This document shows positions 18,821-41,589 of a DNA stretch of 64,000 nucleotides, one piece after another. Within the stretch, counting starts at the first letter, position 1. Each line of letters opens with the position of its first letter. The notes beneath the pieces were generated by a model. That model did not search any database. It saw only the letters and a list, made by a program, of their open reading frames with translations, and was not told the DNA's origin. Both the position numbers and the translations under genes were made by a program. Source of the stretch: an uncultured Bacilli bacterium (GTDB taxonomy: Bacteria > Bacillota_I > Bacilli_A > RF39 > UBA660); assembly GCA_934096125.1 (NCBI GenBank), contig CAKOLB010000002.1, forward strand, positions 41,293-105,292, written 5' to 3'.

Positions 18821-19690
18821 CTCATCTAATGTTTTTTGAAACTCACTTGGAACATTTCTTTGAAAATCAAGGACTTTATTTGTGATGGGATGAACAAAGT
18901 GGATGTGATAAGAATGAAGATACTGGCCAAAGCTAGTGGCATTTTTATTTCCATATACTGGGTCATTATGGACAGGATAACCAGTGTAAGCAAGATGAAC
19001 TCTAATTTGATGAGTACGCCCTGTTTCTAAAGATAACTTTACAAGCGTATTTTCTTTATATTTTTTTATTACTTCAACATGAGTGATAGCTTTTTTGCCA
19101 CCTGCTATTATATCCATTTTATCAAATCTTGATTTACTACGGCCAATTGGCGCATCAATCACAGCTTTCTCTTGTGGAAATACTCCATCTAACAAAGCAA
19201 TATATTCTCTTTTTACTTCCTTATTTTTAAACATTTCGGTTAAAGCTTCATGACACTTATCATCTTTAGATACTACCATAAGGCCACTTGTATCTTTATC
19301 AAGGCGGTGGACAATCCCAGGCCGAAAACTTACCTTACCTCCTAAACTTTGAGTGTAGTTTAAAAGGCCATTAACTAAAGTATTAGTGTAGTTGCCGGCG
19401 CCAGGATGAACAACAAGACCACTTGGCTTATTAATAATCATAAGATACTCATCTTCATAAACGATATCTAAATCCATGGGAGTAGCTTCTAAAGTACACT
19501 CTTTAATGAAGCCATCTTTAATAGATATTTCATCACCTAGTTTTACTTTATAACTTGGTTTTACTTTCTTTTCATTTAAAGTTATAAAACCTTCTTCAAT
19601 CATCTTGGTAATATTTTCCCGGCTTATATCTGTTTTATTACTTAAATACTTATCAATTCGGATATTTTCCGCATTACTTACTATGTTCAT
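18806..19690 (-). CDS. rluD: RluA-family 23S rRNA pseudouridine synthase (RluD-like)
   Basis: S4 domain N-terminus and HRLDKDTSGLMVV catalytic motif. Confidence 0.85.
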   Translation of the reverse strand: MNIVSNAENIRIDKYLSNKTDISRENITKMIEEGFITLNEKKVKPSYKVKLGDEISIKDGFIKECTLEATPMDLDIVYEDEYLMIINKPSGLVVHPGAGNYTNTLVNGLLNYTQSLGGKVSFRPGIVHRLDKDTSGLMVVSKDDKCHEALTEMFKNKEVKREYIALLDGVFPQEKAVIDAPIGRSKSRFDKMDIIAGGKKAITHVEVIKKYKENTLVKLSLETGRTHQIRVHLAYTGYPVHNDPVYGNKNATSFGQYLHSYHIHFVHPITNKVLDFQRNVPSEFQKTLDELDEK

Positions 19691-20135
19691 GATGCTCCTT
19701 TCTTAGATACACTATAATAATTAAAATAACTCCAAGCACTAAAGAGATATCAGCAATGTTAAAGATGGGAAACTCATATGAACCAATATTTACTTTGAAA
19801 TAATCAATAACATAGCCAAATCTTATTCTATCGAGTAAATTACCAAATAAGCCTCCATAAATAAGGCCGAAAGCATATGGTGATATTTTATCAGAAAATT
19901 CTTTTTGGTAAAACAATAAAATAAGAAAGGCAATTAAAGAGATAACTATTAAAATAAAGGTGTGATTACTAAGGATGCTCCAAGCTGCTCCAGTGTTATA
20001 TACTTTATTTAAATAAAATACTTTAGGAATAATTTTCTTTAAAGCATTATATGCCATAGTCTTATCTATTATTTGTTTTACGACAAAATCGAGTAAAAAA
20101 ATGCTTAAAGCTATAAATATACTTTTTCTTTTCAT
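19674..20135 (-). CDS. lspA: lipoprotein signal peptidase II
   Basis: 153 aa, 4 TM; FNIADISLVLG motif. Confidence 0.85.
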   Translation of the reverse strand: MKRKSIFIALSIFLLDFVVKQIIDKTMAYNALKKIIPKVFYLNKVYNTGAAWSILSNHTFILIVISLIAFLILLFYQKEFSDKISPYAFGLIYGGLFGNLLDRIRFGYVIDYFKVNIGSYEFPIFNIADISLVLGVILIIIVYLRKEHHEHSK

Positions 20136-20156
20136 GTATTTATATTACCATAACTT

Positions 20157-20378
20157 TTATTTATTTACCAGTATACAGTCAGTGCCAATCTTTGTTATAT
20201 CACTGTAGGCAAAAGTAATTTCGCTGCTACTAAGCATTTTACGAAATATTTTTTTATTCTCGGCGATAAATTTAACTACTTTTCCATCATGACTTACCTC
20301 TACATCAACAATTTTACCAAGATTTTGCCCAGTTGTTACACTTATTATATCTTTTGTTTGCATTTCGCTTAAATACAT
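20157..20378 (-). CDS. ylmC: YlmC/YmxH-family PRC-barrel sporulation protein
   Basis: 73 aa; MYLSEMQTKDIISVTTGQNLGKIVDVEV...ITKIGTDCILV resembles YlmC/YmxH. Confidence 0.65.
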   Translation of the reverse strand: MYLSEMQTKDIISVTTGQNLGKIVDVEVSHDGKVVKFIAENKKIFRKMLSSSEITFAYSDITKIGTDCILVNK

Positions 20379-20486
20379 GTTATCACCATTAAATTATATG
20401 ATTAGTCATCTTACTTTACTTATACAGAAAAATTTTAAGCAAGAAATAAGTAAGATTTAAGCAAGATAATTTTTTAGTTATCTTGC

Positions 20487-21089
20487 TTATTGTTGAAATT
20501 TTTCGATTGTATCTAGGATTTTGTATATACTGGTATGGGGATTAAAGCTTAATAAATCTTCTTTATCTTTAATAATTCTTTCTTCAAGAGCTTTAGCTAT
20601 ATCTCTGGCACTATCTACATGACAACTAATTATTTTATACATGTCCATACCCTCAGTATACACACCATTTAAATTTTGTAATTCTCTTTTTACGTCTTTG
20701 CTCGATTGAAACTTTAATTTATTGCTACGATAATGCATTATATACCATATTTCAAAAGTTGGTGCAGAAGTAATTATTTCTATACTATTATCAATACACT
20801 TTTGTTTTATCTCTCTTATTTCTCTTATTCGTTTTTCATCTAAATCCGTATCTATTACAAGAAATATTTGGCATGTATCTTCTGATTTTATATCCTCATT
20901 ATCGATATATTTTAGTAAATCATTTAACATGCCTTTAGGGTCAGTGCTATTGCCTGTTGAAAATTGTATTCTAAGACTCCGACTACTATAATTACGAAAA
21001 TAGTAATATTCTGAAGATTTTTTTCCACCTTCCGAACAAATTACAATTAATGGTTTCTTCGCACTTTTCCTTAAGCTTCTTCTAGCCAT
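20487..21089 (-). CDS. RloB-like (Toprim/OLD-like) protein, AbiLii-like partner of the upstream ATPase
   Basis: LIVICSEGGKKSSEYYYF (cf. CEGEKTE-YF), FLVIDTDLD (DxD), APTFEIWYIMHY (cf. SNPCFE.WLLLHF). Confidence 0.7.
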   Translation of the reverse strand: MARRSLRKSAKKPLIVICSEGGKKSSEYYYFRNYSSRSLRIQFSTGNSTDPKGMLNDLLKYIDNEDIKSEDTCQIFLVIDTDLDEKRIREIREIKQKCIDNSIEIITSAPTFEIWYIMHYRSNKLKFQSSKDVKRELQNLNGVYTEGMDMYKIISCHVDSARDIAKALEERIIKDKEDLLSFNPHTSIYKILDTIEKFQQ

Positions 21090-22336
21090 AAATCAGTATC
21101 TTTGATAAATGGAATAGCTCCATAGCGACCATTTATATAACCTTTTTGAATATTTTCATCTTTTCGAACAGAAAACGAATCTAAGGGATATAAGTCTGAA
21201 ACTCCTGTAGATGGATTTTTCTCCGTGAACCATATTTGGTCTCTTCTTAATAGTTCCAAATTGAGTAAATTAGTGGCATGGGTTGTAAATATAAGCTGAC
21301 TGCTTGCTTTATTTATATCTTTGTTATTAAATAATTTAACTATAAATTCTACTAAGGCTGGATGCATACTTTTTTCAAGCTCATCTACTACAATTACTTT
21401 TGTAGTTTCAAATGCTCTTTTTAAAAAGGGAGCAAAAGCAAATAGTACTTTGGTGCCAGATGATTCATCGCTAAGATTAAGTTTATATGTTTGCTTGCTA
21501 TTGTTATCAATTATAACTTCATGTTCTAGCTCTATATTAATATTTTTAACTTTATATGTTCCCCGAGGATTTATAAGTGGAGATGCTAGCATATTAGCTA
21601 CAGTACTATCCATTTCTTTTTCTTCATAATCCACAGTTATATCTTTAATAAGAATATCCGCTTCTTTTAATAGTTTTAACGCAAATTTTTTTAAGTCCTC
21701 ATCGCTACCATATGCTCTTAAATCACTACTAGCAATACTTTCAAATGAATTATAAGTATCTATACTGTTTGCAAACCATAAATAAACATCTTTTGTTTTG
21801 TCGTAGTTCCAAGTAGTTGCAGTTGATAAAAATAGCTTATTTTCCGTATTTTTGATAGCTATTGGTTCTAATTTATTTTTATCACTATTAAATTCATAAT
21901 TATTAGTATTAGTTCTTCTAAAGATATTAGTAGGTTTTTGTGAATAATAAGCGTCAAGGACTTCATCATAAACTTTCTTTGTATCCGCATTAAAGAAATA
22001 ACGATATTTAACTCCATTTATAAGAAATATAAATTCAAATTCACTTGGTTCATTCTTGCTGTTATCATCCAGTAAGAAAGGCTTTACTAAATCAATTTTT
22101 TCTCCAAAAGATATAATATTAGAATTTCTAACCATTAATATGGCGCATGTAAGAGCTTTTAACAAGTTTGATTTACCTGATGCATTTGCTCCATATATTG
22201 CCGCATTTTTAAGTAGTTCAAGATTATTAGTAAACACTATGTTTTCAAGATTTTCATCTCCAAGACCTTTTTCCATGGAAAGTGTTACTTTATTTTTAAA
22301 AGATAAAAAATTTTTAACACTAAATTCTATAAGCAT
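21071..22336 (-). CDS. AAA_15/AAA_21-type ATPase, AbiLi-like (anti-phage/abortive infection ATPase)
   Basis: MLIEFSVKNFLSFKNKVTL... N-terminus, Walker A GANASGKSNLLKAL, C-terminal Walker B region ..VIVVDELEKSMHP..; overlaps the RloB gene by 19 nt. Confidence 0.7.
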   Translation of the reverse strand: MLIEFSVKNFLSFKNKVTLSMEKGLGDENLENIVFTNNLELLKNAAIYGANASGKSNLLKALTCAILMVRNSNIISFGEKIDLVKPFLLDDNSKNEPSEFEFIFLINGVKYRYFFNADTKKVYDEVLDAYYSQKPTNIFRRTNTNNYEFNSDKNKLEPIAIKNTENKLFLSTATTWNYDKTKDVYLWFANSIDTYNSFESIASSDLRAYGSDEDLKKFALKLLKEADILIKDITVDYEEKEMDSTVANMLASPLINPRGTYKVKNINIELEHEVIIDNNSKQTYKLNLSDESSGTKVLFAFAPFLKRAFETTKVIVVDELEKSMHPALVEFIVKLFNNKDINKASSQLIFTTHATNLLNLELLRRDQIWFTEKNPSTGVSDLYPLDSFSVRKDENIQKGYINGRYGAIPFIKDTDLWLEEA

Positions 22337-22453
22337 CTTTATCCCCTCCGGTAATTATTATACACTAAATTAGATAAAAATGTTATTATTTTTTTAATTT
22401 TTGCGTTTTTTTTGCAATTTTCACTAAAATAATTATATTTTTTTAAATTATTT

Positions 22454-23230
22454 TTATTTTATTAATTTTCTTACATTTTCTATAGCATTTTTTTCAATCC
22501 GTGATACTTGGGCTTGGCTTATACATAACTCACTTGCCAGTTCCATTTGGGTTTTCCCAATAATAAATCTTGATACCAAAATATTTCTTTCTCTTTCTTT
22601 AATGTGAAGTAAAGCCTTTCGAAGTGATATAATTGTATCTTTGTCTAAATCTTTATCCTTTTTATCAGCGATTTGGTCAAAAAGATATATGGTATCTCCC
22701 CCATCGTTATAAATTGGTTCAAAGATACTGGCTGGATCTTTTAAAGCATCCAAAGCATAACTAATTGTATATTCATCAATATTTAAACTTTTAGCAATTA
22801 AAGAAGATGTTGGTTCTTTTCCATATTTAGCGGTATATTCATCTTTAAATTTAATTATTGCATAAGCCATTTCCTTAATGCTTCGGCTTACTCTTAAGGC
22901 CATATTATCCCTAATATATCTTTTAACTTCACCAGATATTAAAGGGACTGCATAAGTAGATAGTTTCAAGCCATAAGATAAATCAAAGTTATCAATTGCT
23001 TTAATCAGGCCTATTACACCTACTTGGAATAAATCATCCATGTTTAAACCTTTATGATTAAACTTTCGTAAAACACTTAAAACAAGTTTTAAATTACCAC
23101 TAATAAGTCTTTCTTTCGCATCAATAGAACCATTATGATATTCAACAAATAATTTCTCCATCTCTTTTTGACTTAAAACTTCTATCTCACTTGTATTAAT
23201 ACCTGTTATTTCTACTTTATACTTTGCCAT
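22454..23230 (-). CDS. sigG: sporulation sigma factor of the SigF/SigG family (SigG-like by position upstream of ylmC)
   Basis: 258 aa; DDLFQVGVIGLIKAIDNFDLSYGLKLSTYAVPLISGEVKRYIRDN closely matches the SigF/SigG region 2; HTH at C-terminus. Confidence 0.65.
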   Translation of the reverse strand: MAKYKVEITGINTSEIEVLSQKEMEKLFVEYHNGSIDAKERLISGNLKLVLSVLRKFNHKGLNMDDLFQVGVIGLIKAIDNFDLSYGLKLSTYAVPLISGEVKRYIRDNMALRVSRSIKEMAYAIIKFKDEYTAKYGKEPTSSLIAKSLNIDEYTISYALDALKDPASIFEPIYNDGGDTIYLFDQIADKKDKDLDKDTIISLRKALLHIKERERNILVSRFIIGKTQMELASELCISQAQVSRIEKNAIENVRKLIK

Positions 23231-23602
23231 AAATAAATTCCTTTCTTATTATTTATGGTTTCTTTTCTAGTTATTTATACAAAGAAAGGGCCTTAGTAGA
23301 AATGAATAGTTTCTATTAAGCCGCTTTAAATTTTTGTCGAATTTATATAGAGAATAATTTTTTTAAAATAACGCCATACTTATAGCAATTTCCTTTATAA
23401 AAAATGACTCAGGGCTTCTAAAGTTTCCTGAGTACCACTCGATATAAACTATATCATCATTATTTATAGCTGTCAATATTATCTTGATGATTTATTAAAC
23501 CTCTTTTATAGAATAATATTCAACAAATGATTTCTAAATTTTTTTTACTTAAGATTTTCATCTCACTTGCTTAATACTGGTTATTAATACAAAAAAAGAG
23601 CT

Positions 23603-24163
23603 TTACGCTCTTCCAGAATATTTACCATCTTTAGTAGAGATAATTATTTTTTCTCCCTCATTTATAAATAATGGTACCTTTACTATATAACCTGTTTCAA
23701 TCTTAGCATCTTTACTAGCATTTGTTGCAGTATTACCTTTAACCGCAGGTTCAGTTTCCACTACTTCATATTCTATTTTTTCAGGTAGTGTTATACCTAT
23801 AATTTCTCCCTCATAATAATCAATATCTATTTCTAGACCTTCTTTAATAAAGTTTACATTATTTCCAAGGATAGATGATGGTATTTCCATTTGTTCATAA
23901 GTTTCTCCATTCATAAATACATAATCATCACCCATGCTGTATAGATATGAAGCTTTAACTTTTTCAATACGAGCTTTAGTAATCTTAATATTAGTATTGA
24001 ATGTATCTTCAGTTACAGAACCTGTACGAAGATTTTTTCTTTTTATACGGACAAAAGCAGGACCTTTACCAGGCTTAACGTGTTGAAATTCTACTATAGT
24101 ATATAAATTTCCATCCATGATAATAGTCATACCATTTTTGATATCATTAATGTTAATATCCAT
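23603..24163 (-). CDS. efp: elongation factor P
   Basis: 186 aa; VKPGKGPAFVRIKRKNLRTG... (KPGKG loop). Confidence 0.9.
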   Translation of the reverse strand: MDININDIKNGMTIIMDGNLYTIVEFQHVKPGKGPAFVRIKRKNLRTGSVTEDTFNTNIKITKARIEKVKASYLYSMGDDYVFMNGETYEQMEIPSSILGNNVNFIKEGLEIDIDYYEGEIIGITLPEKIEYEVVETEPAVKGNTATNASKDAKIETGYIVKVPLFINEGEKIIISTKDGKYSGRA

Positions 24164-24181
24164 AACTTTCCCTCTTTTCTA

Positions 24182-24346
24182 TTATTTCTTTTCTTTAAAA
24201 GGTTGTGTCTTTCCACATTTTTTGCAGTATCTATTTATTTCAAGACGTTCAGTAGTATTTTTCTTATTTTTACTAACGGGACGAGCTTCAAAACCACAAG
24301 CAGTACATCTCATAGTAACTTCACTACGATTTTCTTTTTTAGCCAT
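24182..24346 (-). CDS. rpmG: 50S ribosomal protein L33
   Basis: Not in ORF track (54 aa). Minus-strand translation [54 protein letters not shown] with CxxC...CxxC zinc ribbon; RBS GAGGAGG 8 nt upstream. Confidence 0.8.
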
Positions 24347-24639
24347 AAATATTCCTCCTCACTTAATTCATCTTAATTTATTATACCAAAATTATTTTAC
24401 ATTTCAACTTTTTTACCTTCATTTTATGGCAATCTCATAAAAAAACAATTAATTTTGTGATAAAAGCATAAGTTAATAAATATTTTAATTATGAGCATTT
24501 ATAGAATTTTATGTGGGTATACATATTCTGAAGATATGGCGTATTTCTTAGAAGTTCAGGAAAACCATTTCACACAATCACTTGATTTAAAAATTGGTAC
24601 TCCATATCATGACACTTTCTCTAGATCTTATTTCTTTTT

Positions 24640-24850
24640 TTAAGGAATATTATATTTTCAATTAGACAAGTTAAAGTTGATGATAAATCAAAGGAAATAA
24701 CTACTATTTATAAATTACAAGTATTACTAGATATACATGGAAAAATTGTAACAATTGATCAATTTGGTGCTATGATGTTATATTAGGTGAAGATCTTTTA
24801 AGAAAGCGTGCTGAAAATTCCATAGATAATTTATCTTTAATTAGAAAATA
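24640..24850 (+). mobile_element. degenerate IS transposase fragment (ISAs1/IS4-superfamily middle region), interrupted by stops
   Basis: Plus-frame translation ...SKEITTIYKLQVLLDIHGKIVTIDQFGAMMLY* resembles the conserved E-I-ta-IP-LL-LD-kGaiVTIDAMGcQ block of ISAs1-type transposases; in-frame stops follow. Confidence 0.4.
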
Positions 24851-25422
24851 GTTCTTAATCTAACAAAGTAGATAACTCTATGGAAGCTAATTTAACATTA
24901 AAGAAAAAAAATGACTAGATATATAAGTAATTTCAAAAATATTGAAAATCTTATAGTTCAAGTCATTCCATCATTAAACTAACTTTGCATCAATTTTTAT
25001 GTAATTGCCATCTCTTCATTTACCTTAAGTTATCCCAAAATACTTATTATATTTAGCTTGAAGTATATTTGTATGAAGGAGGAAAACAGCTAGTGTTATA
25101 TTGCATTCATTTTGATATTATTTATCATACAAATGCTATCAATTATGTTATTTATGCTGTCACTTCTTACACTTGCTAGTCGTTTGTTGTTATTTTTTAT
25201 TACTTTTGCTAGTATTTCGCTATCTTTTGTATTACTTATGACAGTAGTTTGCTACTATTTTGATAGCGTTTTACATGCACTTCGGTAACTTTTTGACAGT
25301 ATTTTGCATGCTGTTCAAAGCACCTTGTAAGCAAGTACTTTATTAAGTTTAAGTATTTATCAATTGAATGTATTTGTATTTTTTTACTATCATAACGCTA
25401 TCATATTACTGACATTTGTATG

Positions 25423-26949
25423 CTACACGGCAATCCTAATTGGATTTACTTTAGTTCCTGTGCCGGATGCATAAGTTGTGGAATCCACGAGATTGAAGGA
25501 CGGCCGGACCACATACGCCTTAGACGCACGGTTGCTGTCCACATACCCAGACGCATACACAACGAACACAGGAAACGCATAGTCCGAATACCGGGAAATA
25601 GTCCATTCATAACTACCGCCATTATATAGCCAGTTTTCTTTAATTCCTTTTCGGATGTCTTCTCCATTATACTTCCAACCAGGCAATGACCAATATTTTG
25701 GACTTGCTGCAAAACCATAGTCACTTGCATACATGAGTCCTATTTTTGCACTATAAGTAGTACTAGCATTCGTCGTCATTTCTTTTGAGTACATGTTCTT
25801 TATTCCTGCAGTCGAAGCCATTGACCTATCAGCTCCTCCGACTTGCCATGTTGTTGTGGCAATTTTACCAGCCCAAGTTGTTCCTATTTTATTTATGAAA
25901 TTTTTATTTAAGTTAGTTTTATTAAGTAAACTTGTACTCCAGTCATTTGAACCATCTCCTTGATTTATTGTTGTGTTTGCTTTGTAATTCCAGCTATATT
26001 CCGTACTTGAACTATAATCTCCATCAGCGCCAAGTAAAGTACTGCTTGCAACTGTGGCTTTAATAAGTTTCACTTGTCCACTTTTTACATAGATTATTCG
26101 GTATAGATTATCTGCTGGACATGGACTTGCAGTTGAACCAAAGCATACATAATTGTCGGGATTTGCTCCTGAATATCTGTAAGAGTCATCTTCTGCTCCT
26201 AGTATAAGTGATGCATCATGGTGATAAATACTTGCTGCTTGACCATATTTTGTACTTAGCGTTGTAAGACATGTTGCAAGGTTACTTCCATTTGTGCATC
26301 CGCTTGTTGCTAACGTATATTGTGAATTTTTGCTTATTTGGAGTACACCAGTAAAGCTCTTACCAGCATTACTGGTTTGGTCTCTATCTAAGTTAACTAA
26401 AGTAACTTGCACTTTCCAATTATCTGTTTTATTTGGAGATGCTGATATTTCATAATAATCAGCTATTTTTATTGGGCCAGTATAAGTTGTGATATCAAAG
26501 CCACTTACTCCACCAGAAGTTACATAATTCATCCCATCAAGCTCTGTTACTACTTTATTATTGGGATCAGTAATTGTAAGAAGCAATTCTGCAGAATTGC
26601 TACTAGTTGTGTATATGAAGGGATTGTTAGTAATATTAAAGTAAAGATAATAATGTTCTGTTGCTTCATTTGTAGCATCGTTGGCTGTTAGCAAAGCTGT
26701 TGCTGTAGTACTACCTGTCACATTACCTTTCCCACTTGCAAATGATGTTTGGTCGGCTGTTAGGTTAACCGATGAACCCACACTAAAAGATAAGTTATCC
26801 GTAGACGACGTTTGTACTCTAACGCTACTATTTGACGTAGCACCACCTTGTGCAACAAAATATGCATACGTTGCTCCTCCTACTACAACAAAAAAGCCAA
26901 ATAACGTTATTAACATTAAAATTTTTTCTTTTCTATTGCTTCTTTTCAT
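25423..26949 (-). CDS. TasA/camelysin-like secreted protein with SipW-cognate-type signal peptide (paralog A, 508 aa)
   Basis: N-terminus ...FFVVVGGATYAYFVAQGGATSNSSV matches the SipW-cognate motif (GGTFAYFSD...). ~95% nt identity to 28520-30058 over the 5' ~1 kb. RBS AAAGGAGTG. Confidence 0.65.
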   Translation of the reverse strand: MKRSNRKEKILMLITLFGFFVVVGGATYAYFVAQGGATSNSSVRVQTSSTDNLSFSVGSSVNLTADQTSFASGKGNVTGSTTATALLTANDATNEATEHYYLYFNITNNPFIYTTSSNSAELLLTITDPNNKVVTELDGMNYVTSGGVSGFDITTYTGPIKIADYYEISASPNKTDNWKVQVTLVNLDRDQTSNAGKSFTGVLQISKNSQYTLATSGCTNGSNLATCLTTLSTKYGQAASIYHHDASLILGAEDDSYRYSGANPDNYVCFGSTASPCPADNLYRIIYVKSGQVKLIKATVASSTLLGADGDYSSSTEYSWNYKANTTINQGDGSNDWSTSLLNKTNLNKNFINKIGTTWAGKIATTTWQVGGADRSMASTAGIKNMYSKEMTTNASTTYSAKIGLMYASDYGFAASPKYWSLPGWKYNGEDIRKGIKENWLYNGGSYEWTISRYSDYAFPVFVVYASGYVDSNRASKAYVVRPSFNLVDSTTYASGTGTKVNPIRIAV

Positions 26950-28473: not shown

Positions 28474-28523
28474 TCTTTTGGTTAGTTTTCACCGTTGTTT
28501 TTTTAAAATTGTCCGTTAATCAG
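28474..28523. repeat. direct repeat copy 2, overlapping the 3' end/stop of TasA-like paralog B
   Basis: See 28125-28176. Confidence 0.7.
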
Positions 28524-30058
28524 TCTATTCTAATCGGGTCGTCGGCGCTACCACTCCCCGATACATAGGTTACAAAAGACTCAAGATTGAAGGACGGCCG
28601 AACCACATGCGTAAACGACGCATCGCTGCAGCCCACATACCCAAATTGATACACAATGAACACACGATTCGCATAGTTCGAATCCCGGGAAATAGTCCAT
28701 TCATTACTGCCACCATTATATAGCCAGTTTTCTTTAATTCCTTTTCGGATGTCTTCTCCATCACCTTTATAACCAGGCAATGACCAATATTTTGGACTAG
28801 CTGCAAATCCATAATCTGATGCATACATTAACCCTATTTTTGCTGGGTATTCTGTGGCATTATCAGTTGTATTTGTTGTTACCGGATTTACGATTTCATT
28901 TTGATATGTTGTTGCTGGTACTACGTCACGTATATTTGCGGATGTATTTCCCCCAACTTTCCATGTTGTAGTTGCTATCTTATTTGCCCATTCTGTTCCT
29001 ATATTTGTTATGAAATTTGTATTTAAATTTGTTTTATTTAACAAACTTGTACTCCATGTATTTGAACCACTTCTTGAATTTATTGTTGTGTCTGCTTTGT
29101 AGTTCCAGTAATAACCCCTAGATCCATAATCTCCATCCATTCCAAGTAAAGTATCGCTGGCAACTGTGGCTTTAATAAGTTTCACTTGACCTTCCTTAAC
29201 ATAAATTATACGGTATAAATTATCTTCTGGACATGGACTTGCAGTTGAACCAAAGCATACATAATTGTCGGGATTTGCTCCTGAATATCTGTAAGAGTCA
29301 TCTTCTGCTCCTAACGTTAAATTACTATCATGATGGTATAAACTTGCTGCTTGACCATACTCCGCATTTAAGTCAGTTAAACATGTTGCTAAATTACTAC
29401 CACTAGTGCATCCGCTTGTTGCTAGCGTATATTGTGAATTTTTGCTTATTTGGAGTACTCCACTAAAGCTCTTACCAGCATTACTGGTTTGATCGCTATT
29501 AAGATTAACTAGTGTTACTCCTACTTTCCAGTTATCTGTTTTATTTGGAGATGCTGATATTTCATAATAATCAGCTAGTTTTATTGGGCCAGTATAAGTT
29601 GTGATATCAAAGCCACTTACTCCTCCAGAAGTTACATAATTCATCCCATCAAGCTCTGTTACAACCGTCCCTGTTGGGTCTGTGATGGTTAGAAGTAACT
29701 CTGCAGAATTATCAGATGTTGTGTATATGAAAGGATTATTTGTAATATTAAAATAAAGATAATAATGCTCTGTTGCTTCATTTGTAGCATCGTTGGCTGT
29801 AAGCAAGGCTGTTGCTGTAGTACTACCTGTCACATTACCTTTCCCACTTGCAAATGATGTTTGATCGGCTGTTAGAGCAATAGATTTACCCACACTAAAA
29901 GAGAGATTATCAGTTGTTGATGTTTGTATTCTTACGCTACTATTTGACGTAGCACCACCTTGTGCAACAAAGTATGCATATGTTGCTCCCACAACTAACA
30001 CAAACAAAAACATTAAAGCCAAGATATACTTAACTTGTTTACTTTTTAATCTATCCAT
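28520..30058 (-). CDS. TasA/camelysin-like secreted protein with SipW-cognate-type signal peptide (paralog B, ~512 aa)
   Basis: Start ATG at 30058 (MDRLKSK..) preceded by AAGGTGGA; the ORF-track start 30067 is a GTG inside the RBS. N-terminal 300 aa are nearly identical to paralog A, with variable patches in the C-terminal half. Confidence 0.65.
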   Translation of the reverse strand: MDRLKSKQVKYILALMFLFVLVVGATYAYFVAQGGATSNSSVRIQTSTTDNLSFSVGKSIALTADQTSFASGKGNVTGSTTATALLTANDATNEATEHYYLYFNITNNPFIYTTSDNSAELLLTITDPTGTVVTELDGMNYVTSGGVSGFDITTYTGPIKLADYYEISASPNKTDNWKVGVTLVNLNSDQTSNAGKSFSGVLQISKNSQYTLATSGCTSGSNLATCLTDLNAEYGQAASLYHHDSNLTLGAEDDSYRYSGANPDNYVCFGSTASPCPEDNLYRIIYVKEGQVKLIKATVASDTLLGMDGDYGSRGYYWNYKADTTINSRSGSNTWSTSLLNKTNLNTNFITNIGTEWANKIATTTWKVGGNTSANIRDVVPATTYQNEIVNPVTTNTTDNATEYPAKIGLMYASDYGFAASPKYWSLPGYKGDGEDIRKGIKENWLYNGGSNEWTISRDSNYANRVFIVYQFGYVGCSDASFTHVVRPSFNLESFVTYVSGSGSADDPIRID

Positions 30059-30129
30059 AACGTCCACCTTACATTTATTATAGTACTTAGCATTTCCAAT
30101 TTATACTTTCATATGTATTCATTTTGCAA

Positions 30130-39677: not shown

Positions 39678-40475
39678 TTACACATTTATAATTCCTAGGT
39701 CAACCAACATAACAGTTATTAGTGACAATGCTTTATAGTAGCCATCCGTTTTTAAAAAACTTTCTTCCATCTCAAATACTTTTTTATTAACTTTATAAAA
39801 ATCAGATGGTTCATAACTATAAATTTTCATATTTTCAAAAGATTTATGCATATTTTGAGCAGCCACTAAAAGAGATTTTTCTGTTATATTTGCTAAACTA
39901 TACTTACGAGCGTTTGCTCTAACTTCTTTTTTTACCTCTAAACTACTTCTAAATTTCATTAAATACGCTTGTTTGTTAAAATGAGATAACTCGTAGCTTT
40001 CAACACATGGATAACTTAGCAATAATAAACCATTCATATTATAGTTATTATCCTGCGAATTTCGATACACATCTAAACATTTAAGAACAGTCTTCTTAGT
40101 ATTACTTTTATGGTCTCTGTCCCAAAGGATATATATTGGAACATTTTTTAAGCTACGTTGATAATCTTTCATAATTAGATTATATAGGTTATCCTTAAAG
40201 TCTTCTGGTTCCAAAAGAGATTTCATGCTAGAACTATTTGTATTAACTACAAATACAGTGGAATTTTTATTTGTTTTACTTTGCATAATATCGGTTATAC
40301 CACGAGACTTTTTATAAGGAATATAATTATAATCAAATAAATCTACAAATATATGTTTTAATAGTTTAAATTCTTCTGATTCACCTTCTACTACAACAAC
40401 AATTTCCCCAATACTTTTATTTTTATTAACTTTTAAGTTCTTTATTGTATTTTGGCATTCCATCAAAAACTCCAT
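39678..40475 (-). CDS. RloB-like (Toprim/OLD-like) protein, AbiLii-like
   Basis: IVVVVEGESEEFKLL, IYILWDRDHK (DxD), LLLLSYPCVESYELSHF. Confidence 0.65.
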   Translation of the reverse strand: MEFLMECQNTIKNLKVNKNKSIGEIVVVVEGESEEFKLLKHIFVDLFDYNYIPYKKSRGITDIMQSKTNKNSTVFVVNTNSSSMKSLLEPEDFKDNLYNLIMKDYQRSLKNVPIYILWDRDHKSNTKKTVLKCLDVYRNSQDNNYNMNGLLLLSYPCVESYELSHFNKQAYLMKFRSSLEVKKEVRANARKYSLANITEKSLLVAAQNMHKSFENMKIYSYEPSDFYKVNKKVFEMEESFLKTDGYYKALSLITVMLVDLGIINV

Positions 40476-41589
40476 TTAAATACATTTTTTCAATATTTTG
40501 AGATTCACGGGGATTTTCATCAGAAAAACGTTTAACTACTGTTCCTCTAGCAGCATCAAATTTAAAAGAATAAATTTGGTCTGGCCTTAAAATAGATGTA
40601 TCTAATAAATTGGTTGAATGAGAAGTGAAAAATATTTGTGAATTACCACTATTATTAAAGAAATATTTTATAAGAGCTTCCTCTAATTCATTATGAAGCC
40701 CACTACTAAATTCATCTATTATTAACATACAATTATTTTTAGTAGCATAATAAATTGGTAATATAATACTAAGAAAAGCTTTATTGCCTGTTGACTCCAA
40801 GTTTAAGGGCATAACTACATTTGTCCCATTTTTTTTAAGACCTATCTTGTTATTTTTTGAACCTATTAAAATTGTTTTGCTTGCTTTACTATTTTCCTTT
40901 GTAAATACTATTTCACTCTTATAGCCAAGTTTTTTTAAAAAATTATTTAAAGACTTCTCTTTATTTTTCTCAGCATATTTGTCTAAAAATTGCTCAGAAA
41001 TTCTCGCAGGATTATATGATTTTATAATGCCATCTTGAAATAAACAATTGATATATATTGAATTTTTAAGAAAATCAAACCATTTATTTAACACTACATC
41101 ATTATTAAATCTTGTATTATAGTACTCAAGTTTTAAAAGTGACAAACTAGGACTAATGTTTTTATTATCTTTCTCCATACCAAAATAGGTTTTACCACTA
41201 GTATTTAATCTTTCTAATCTTAATTCACTATTTAAATATAACTTCTCAGAATTTATATAGTTTTTTTCAAAAGTAACACAATATTCTAACTCATTATTAT
41301 CAATATCAAATTTATAGCTTAATGAAAATTTATCATCTTTTGTATATAATGATTTTTTTTGGATATAGTCTTGTTCAGAATTTTCTAAAAGTAAGTCAAG
41401 CAAAAACTTAATAGCTTTTAAAACTTGGGTCTTACCTGAGGCATTTTCTCCTACGAATAAAGCACCTTTTAAAACCCTATTATCTCCAACGTTTGTTTCT
41501 TCTAATATTTTGTAATTGGTTGCCTTAAAATCAAATTTTGTTTTTTTAATAAACGTTGTATAGTTGTTTAAAGTAATTTCAGTTAACAT
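40426..41589 (-). CDS. AAA_15/AAA_21-type ATPase, AbiLi-like
   Basis: MLTEITLNNYTTFIKKTKFDF.. , Walker A GENASGKTQVLKAI, Walker B MLIIDEFSSGLH; overlaps the RloB gene by 50 nt. Confidence 0.65.
   Translation of the reverse strand: MLTEITLNNYTTFIKKTKFDFKATNYKILEETNVGDNRVLKGALFVGENASGKTQVLKAIKFLLDLLLENSEQDYIQKKSLYTKDDKFSLSYKFDIDNNELEYCVTFEKNYINSEKLYLNSELRLERLNTSGKTYFGMEKDNKNISPSLSLLKLEYYNTRFNNDVVLNKWFDFLKNSIYINCLFQDGIIKSYNPARISEQFLDKYAEKNKEKSLNNFLKKLGYKSEIVFTKENSKASKTILIGSKNNKIGLKKNGTNVVMPLNLESTGNKAFLSIILPIYYATKNNCMLIIDEFSSGLHNELEEALIKYFFNNSGNSQIFFTSHSTNLLDTSILRPDQIYSFKFDAARGTVVKRFSDENPRESQNIEKMYLNGVFDGMPKYNKELKS

Follow-up and report, generated by a model that had tools for sequence, protein, structure and literature searches.

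In a 64,000-nt stretch of DNA from an uncultured Bacilli bacterium (hereafter the window), we identified a two-gene module of the AbiL type, consisting of an ABC ATPase and a putative RloB/Toprim-like nuclease, between a sigG-type sigma factor gene and ylmC. We consider it very probable that an autonomous 2-kb AbiL-type anti-phage module entered a tight sigG-ylmC junction in one sublineage of this low-GC, human-gut spore-former. The features of the region, in the direction of transcription, are as follows.

23288..23579, minus strand: 292-bp segment between efp and sigG, specific to occupied loci (blastn against empty loci)
22454..23230, minus strand: sigG-type sigma factor gene, flank upstream of the cassette (SigG as best NCBIfam match, 5e-101, below the equivalog cutoff)
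20444..22444, minus strand: whole occupied-specific cassette of 2,001 bp, i.e. promoter region, two genes and terminator (blastn against empty-site loci L016-L023, junction sequences)
22337..22444, minus strand: 5' region of the cassette (promoter scan and sequence)
22417..22401, minus strand: palindrome TTGCAAAAAAAACGCAA upstream of the cassette promoter, with a putative function (sequence)
22386..22357, minus strand: predicted sigma-70-like promoter, ATAACA-18-TATAAT (promoter scan)
22349..22343, minus strand: ribosome-binding site GGAGGGG before the ATPase start (sequence)
22336..21071, minus strand: AbiLi-type ABC/AAA_21 ATPase, 421 aa, ATG start, putative sensor and keeper of the nuclease
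21089..20487, minus strand: AbiLii/RloB protein, 200 aa, ATG start, putative Toprim-like nuclease effector
20489..20458, minus strand: intrinsic-terminator-like hairpin with a 12-bp stem, beginning at the RloB stop codon (terminator scan)
20157..20378, minus strand: ylmC/ymxH, flank downstream of the cassette (TIGR02888, 5.7e-15, above cutoff)

A preliminary description, made from the letters of the window, had claimed a 421-aa ATPase with a GANASGKS motif and an overlapping 200-aa RloB protein, and both reading frames and motifs were recovered as claimed, with the RloB gene starting 19 nt before the end of the ATPase gene on the same strand (open reading frame list). In the ATPase, Walker A (GANASGKS, residues 49-56), Walker B (VIVVDE, 314-319) and the H-loop (TTH, 351-353) are all intact, and the 200-aa protein carries CSEGG (18-22), DTD (80-82) and FEIW (112-115, within FEIWYIMHY). 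The AbiLi/AbiLii-like identity that had been proposed, together with Pfam and PADLOC searches as a means of checking it, held up in these searches. Against Pfam, the ATPase matched AAA_21 (1.3e-36, residues 45-359) and its partner matched RloB (PF13707, 3.5e-22, 80 bits with a cutoff of 31.5) over the full length of the model, both above the gathering scores. Against PADLOC, AbiLi (PDLC02335, 2.7e-94, 313.9 bits) ranked at the top of 49 ATPase families, with AriA second best (1.6e-37), and the 200-aa protein matched AbiLii (7.5e-14). The locus combines what PADLOC expects of AbiL (an AbiLi match, an AbiLii/RloB match, and adjacent co-oriented genes in one operon) with the hallmarks of an OLD-like ABC ATPase and Toprim couple, namely Walker A/B and H-loop in the ATPase, and Glu and DxD acidic residues in RloB. 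Judged by profiles and motifs, its assignment as an AbiL-type two-gene module (ABC ATPase plus RloB protein, a putative Toprim-like nuclease) is unambiguous, and phage resistance by abortive infection is the activity that analogy would predict.

The predicted role of the small protein as a Toprim nuclease is consistent with its conservation. Among 99 RloB relatives (23-60% identity), G21, E27, D80, D82, E113, W115 and Y144 are invariant and E20 is conserved in at least 90%, and in alignment A3 all five acidic residues (E20, E27, D80, D82, E113) are invariant. This acidic pattern is that expected of a Toprim domain, with the placement of the active site being a prediction from sequence. RloB has previously been related to OLD_TOPRIM by HHpred (PMC10440598), and AbiLii has been modelled as an OLD-like Toprim (PMC13064643). 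Our structure model of RloB, built from a deep alignment, reached a pLDDT of 90.9 and a pTM of 0.87; it superseded an initial model whose alignment was shallow (column identity of 94%), with a pLDDT of 64.6 and meaningless Foldseek matches. A Foldseek search with the deep-alignment model was negative, phmmer and profile searches of PDB sequences matched no solved Toprim, an hhalign comparison of RloB with P2 Old was negative, and a Pfam scan of the 99 relatives returned only weak secondary matches, to DUF4276 and DUF3854.

By comparing occupied and empty haplotypes, the cassette could be delimited to the nucleotide or nearly so. Homology between the haplotypes stops 5-6 nt past the sigG stop codon and restarts 65 nt before the ylmC start, the 65-nt region upstream of ylmC being kept intact at the right junction, and the cassette stands in for 228 unrelated bp of the empty allele (L016 5708-5935). 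The 2-kb unit appears self-contained, with a promoter and a terminator of its own, both being predicted expression signals. The promoter scan found no TG for an extended -10 at the cassette promoter, and no good ribosome-binding site was found before the RloB start within the overlap, so that translation of RloB is likely coupled to that of the ATPase. The terminator-like hairpin is particular to the window copy, the 3' flanks of its relatives being different, and an Rfam search of positions 19500-25500 gave no match. The palindrome, which may be an operator for autoregulation, is conserved at equivalent positions in other copies (L026, L032, L036) with compensatory changes, its arms reading TTGCaaaaaaaacGCAA in the window and TTGTG...TACAA or TTGTA...CACAA elsewhere.

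Within the species, the cassette is variably present. Exact-sequence look-ups placed the window in human-gut metagenomes from the Hadza and other cohorts, and among 24 contigs that were read and encode an identical YlmC, eight carry the pair, and in the other 16 a gap of 302 bp separates sigG from ylmC. Since contigs with the same YlmC either carry or lack it, the pair is accessory cargo, found in about a third of the species' strains. The cassette is 99.9-100% identical across all 17 occupied loci. Every contig listed with the exact sigG allele of the window has the pair, and this allele is 97.7% identical to that of the empty haplotype. Divergence between the haplotypes amounts to 2-3.5% in sigG and ylmC-lspA beside the cassette vs 0-1% in the wider flanks, a pattern that fits the exchange of a few-kb tract by homologous recombination. 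In one locus (L011), what looked like a 117-bp deletion through the ATPase gene proved to be a 10-N scaffold gap and not gene decay.

Linkage between the cassette and the 292-bp efp-sigG segment is complete (100% of the 17 occupied loci), and the empty loci lack the segment. Within it lie a small T-run hairpin, a degenerate 68-nt copy (~79%) of the sigG sequence around codons ~8-31 and, at 23476..23448, a strong promoter of the sigma-70-like type (TTGACA-17-TATAGT); we found no open reading frame, Rfam match or repeat copy elsewhere for it, and its folding is unremarkable (z-score -1.07). It is probably the rearrangement scar of a partial sigG duplication. Since the terminator scan detected no terminator-like site in the 117 nt that lead from the sigG stop codon to the cassette, and a strong one after RloB, the module may also be read through from the forespore-specific sigG promoter, which would provide the developing spore with stage-specific immunity against entrapped phage genomes. 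We regard such read-through as highly unlikely; were it true, the linked sigG allele and the sigG-derived scar would be traces of selection on the coupling.

The direction of the event was addressed through a SigG search of metagenomes, which yielded 80 related loci with 56-98% identity. In 37 of these, ylmC lies at most 100 bp from sigG, and an AbiLi or RloB relative was found in none of the 80; as far as such sequence comparison goes, sigG and ylmC were therefore ancestrally close together, and the AbiL pair was inserted between them. An insertion at this interval had been proposed beforehand, with a comparison of related genomes as the check, and it is borne out both by conspecific contigs that lack the pair and by related lineages in which the junction is tight and free of AbiL relatives, rather than the pair occupying this site in all related genomes. 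The same junction has taken other cargo in other lineages, i.e. an APH-family kinase (phosphotransferase) gene in 22 of the 80 loci, all of one lineage and with a gap of 1,239 bp (e.g. L104 5820-6962), and a 160-aa protein with a hydrophobic C-terminus in one locus (L072 4984-5466). We also considered that the pair might be ancestral at the site, the empty allele having arisen by deletion, and would then represent decaying resident DNA and not incoming cargo. Neither allele is simply derived from the other, as the empty one has 228 bp that are missing from the occupied one, and the direction is not readable from two alleles alone. This alternative is nevertheless extremely unlikely when set against the 37 tight related loci and the lack of any AbiLi/RloB relative among the 80, a cassette 5' end that coincides with a homology boundary shared with copies in unrelated contexts, the raised divergence of the flanks, as expected of an imported tract, and the near invariance of the cassette among its carriers.

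Relatives of the ATPase are abundant (> 7,900 at E < 1e-10). The nearest ones outside the species are 422 aa long, share 76-81% protein identity and occur in many gut metagenomes (e.g. from 'Candidatus Pelethosoma merdigallinarum', 'Clostridium sp. CAG:594' and 'Bacilli bacterium'), and their RloB partners form an even tighter cluster of 203 aa. This cassette family has 77-79% DNA identity to the window copy and has the 19-nt overlap, the promoter region and the 5' boundary in common with it, and differs in insertion sites and 3' terminators, the window copy being a divergent outlier to a very tight and widespread cluster. In one context, the relative adjoins a transposase fragment along with genes for a tyrosine integrase and a Mob_Pre relaxase; in another, it is flanked by rpsB-tsf and polA and has AbiEii as a neighbor; in a third, it is part of an island that also comprises an AEP-helicase, ToxN and transposases. 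The overlap is kept in relatives from all three of these contexts, and conservation of the 5' region amounts to 77-79% among relatives that come from four unrelated contexts. In every context, DNA homology to the window (77-79%) begins ~118-120 nt upstream of the ATPase ATG, which is the left junction in the window, and it stops at the RloB stop codon, each copy having its own terminator. The cassette is thus mobile across genomic contexts as a unit. Neither a recombinase nor terminal repeats nor a target duplication could be found for it, and direct or inverted repeats flanking it were limited to chance-level A/T-rich matches. More distant relatives (at most 38% identity) reside on 187 plasmids and in several phages, among them a pair from a Lactococcus prophage that carries an abortive-infection annotation and also matches AbiLi/AbiLii. 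Among viral contigs, relatives reached only 29-39% identity, with no evidence of phage delivery of the window copy. In one relative (L034 2763-4712), the AbiL-type pair is directly followed by a 649-aa AAA_21 protein, an arrangement that suggests stacked ATPase-based defence genes.

The neighbors of the pair, assigned with Pfam and NCBIfam, are efp, the SigF/SigG-family sigma gene, ylmC/ymxH, lspA (by Peptidase_A8), rluD (by PseudoU_synth_2 and S4), a rhomboid protease gene and lexA. Of two claims of the preliminary description regarding this location, one held and one stood in part. The likeness to the gene order of B. subtilis was confirmed for sigma-ylmC-lspA-rluD, with the correction to the wider context that sigG is preceded by efp and not by spoIIGA-sigE. 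The location was called unusual, which agrees with the tightness of the sigG-ylmC junction in relatives, but sister cassettes also lie between housekeeping genes, and the window itself harbors a second AbiL-type pair. The latter (39678-41589, minus strand) encodes a 387-aa ATPase (PADLOC AbiLi, 1.6e-50) with a 50-nt overlap to a 265-aa partner, which matches AbiLii at 5.6e-07, has no Pfam RloB match and reached 58.7% probability with the RloB profile by hhalign. It is placed between murG-murB-ftsQ-queH and a Xer-type recombinase gene, and the ATPases of the two pairs share 32% identity over 127 aa only. As it was found in all 24 contigs read, including those empty at sigG-ylmC, this second pair appears to be fixed in the species. 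Elsewhere in the window, two paralogous genes for products of ~510 aa (25423-26949 and 28520-30067, both on the minus strand) encode an N-terminal hydrophobic segment and have no Pfam match; they are ~85% identical in DNA (blastn self-match of the conspecific contig L001). The 25423-26949 gene is the most divergent between haplotypes (8-18% per 200 bp vs ~1% in neighbors), other contigs carry different genes beside it, and its product is probably a fast-evolving surface protein.

[quoted passage not shown] Whether AbiL acts like PARIS has been described as still to be determined and in need of further work, in a paper that also cites the lactococcal studies of phage resistance by AbiL (PMC13064643). 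The best-supported model for the window pair rests on analogy with PARIS (AriA/AriB) and with ATPase-neutralized Toprim toxins. Following its entry, the cassette would have spread, or would be kept in place, by homologous recombination via the core genes on either side. Both proteins would be made from one transcript, with translation coupled via the 19-nt overlap, and the ABC-type ATPase would oligomerize and keep the RloB/Toprim-like nuclease inactive. On sensing a cue from the phage, the ATPase might then release or activate the nuclease in an ATP-dependent manner, and the nuclease would cleave an essential nucleic acid (tRNA in PARIS), which would stop the production of phage and sacrifice the infected cell. 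The complex itself, its trigger, the target of the nuclease and the abortive outcome are all extrapolated from these analogous systems.

The same gene content could be read as mainly a selfish toxin-antitoxin or addiction module, with RloB as the toxin and the ATPase as its neutralizer, such that loss is lethal and the anti-phage role is small or nil. NetFlax placed AAA ATPase and RloB/Toprim pairs within the type II toxin-antitoxin network, with the ATPase as antitoxin (PMC10440598), the overlapping bicistronic layout resembles that of toxin-antitoxin loci, and the cassette moves as a unit between contexts. We nonetheless consider this unlikely, as toxin-antitoxin and defence functions are compatible, PARIS being both (PMC13064643), relatives of the pair cluster with AbiEii and ToxN defence genes, and two thirds of the conspecific contigs are without the cassette, so that addiction does not prevent its absence. 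Another reading would attach the pair to a type I restriction-modification locus, as an accessory of the RloA/RloB type, or else give it a RecF/SMC-like housekeeping role in repair or sporulation. The RloB name stems from restriction-linked open reading frames of Campylobacter hsd loci (PMC10440598, PMC13064643), the ATPase has a weak RecF match covering the P-loop only, and the pair sits amid sporulation and housekeeping genes. However, no hsd genes occur within ~10 kb on either side, where the neighbors are all housekeeping genes, the RecF match scores 15 bits with a cutoff of 172, and variable presence within the species along with the mobile-element contexts of relatives speaks against a core function, leaving this reading with next to no probability.

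As an incoming AbiL-type module, the locus provides a well-delimited natural example from an uncultured human-gut Firmicute, with exact boundaries, an empty-site counterpart within the species and sister copies in other genomic contexts. It illustrates how a defence cassette of very small size can settle between core genes in tight linkage with no visible mobility gene, and the 2.0-kb cassette, with its own promoter and terminator, would be a convenient minimal construct for work on the mechanism of AbiL. The case is clear but ordinary, as the defence system is a known one that is present as variable cargo, and it leaves the knowledge of the family unchanged.

Among known systems, PARIS, which belongs to class 4 of the OLD-like systems, resembles the window pair in having an ABC ATPase split from a separate Toprim-type nuclease, and the ATPase matches AriA; an ATPase that holds the nuclease is the working analogy taken from it (PMC11464382). 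The window effector is, however, RloB (PF13707) and not DUF4435/AriB, and the ATPase scores far higher as AbiLi. Since neither Pfam nor PADLOC gave an AriB/DUF4435 match for the 200-aa protein, the pair is, by these profiles, not PARIS. P2 Old and Gabija GajA (OLD nucleases of classes 1 and 2) carry ATPase and Toprim on a single chain, whereas the window pair has two open reading frames and is for this reason not a class 1/2 OLD nuclease; P2 Old showed no significant sequence or profile similarity, and the window pair is without a GajB-like helicase partner. Campylobacter RloA/RloB likewise comprises a small protein of the same Pfam family and an ATPase partner, but the window pair lies outside any type I restriction-modification locus, no such genes being present among the open reading frames scanned around it, and it is therefore not a restriction-linked RloAB. 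The closest counterpart is AbiL (AbiLi/AbiLii), which was reportedly described from the lactococcal plasmid pND861 by Deng et al. in 1999. As in the window, AbiL-type pairs (e.g. ORF55/56 of the Lactococcus prophage proPhi7) have the gene of an AAA_21 ABC-type ATPase in front of one for an RloB protein of ~200 aa, the two genes overlapping or lying side by side. Identity between the window and Lactococcus prophage pairs is 28% for the ATPase and 23% over 120 aa for RloB, so that target and trigger may differ, and lactococcal AbiL is found on a plasmid or prophage, whereas the window pair is chromosomal and resides in a gut spore-former. Both pairs nevertheless match the AbiLi and AbiLii models of PADLOC and have the E...DxD...E(V/I)W motifs in common.
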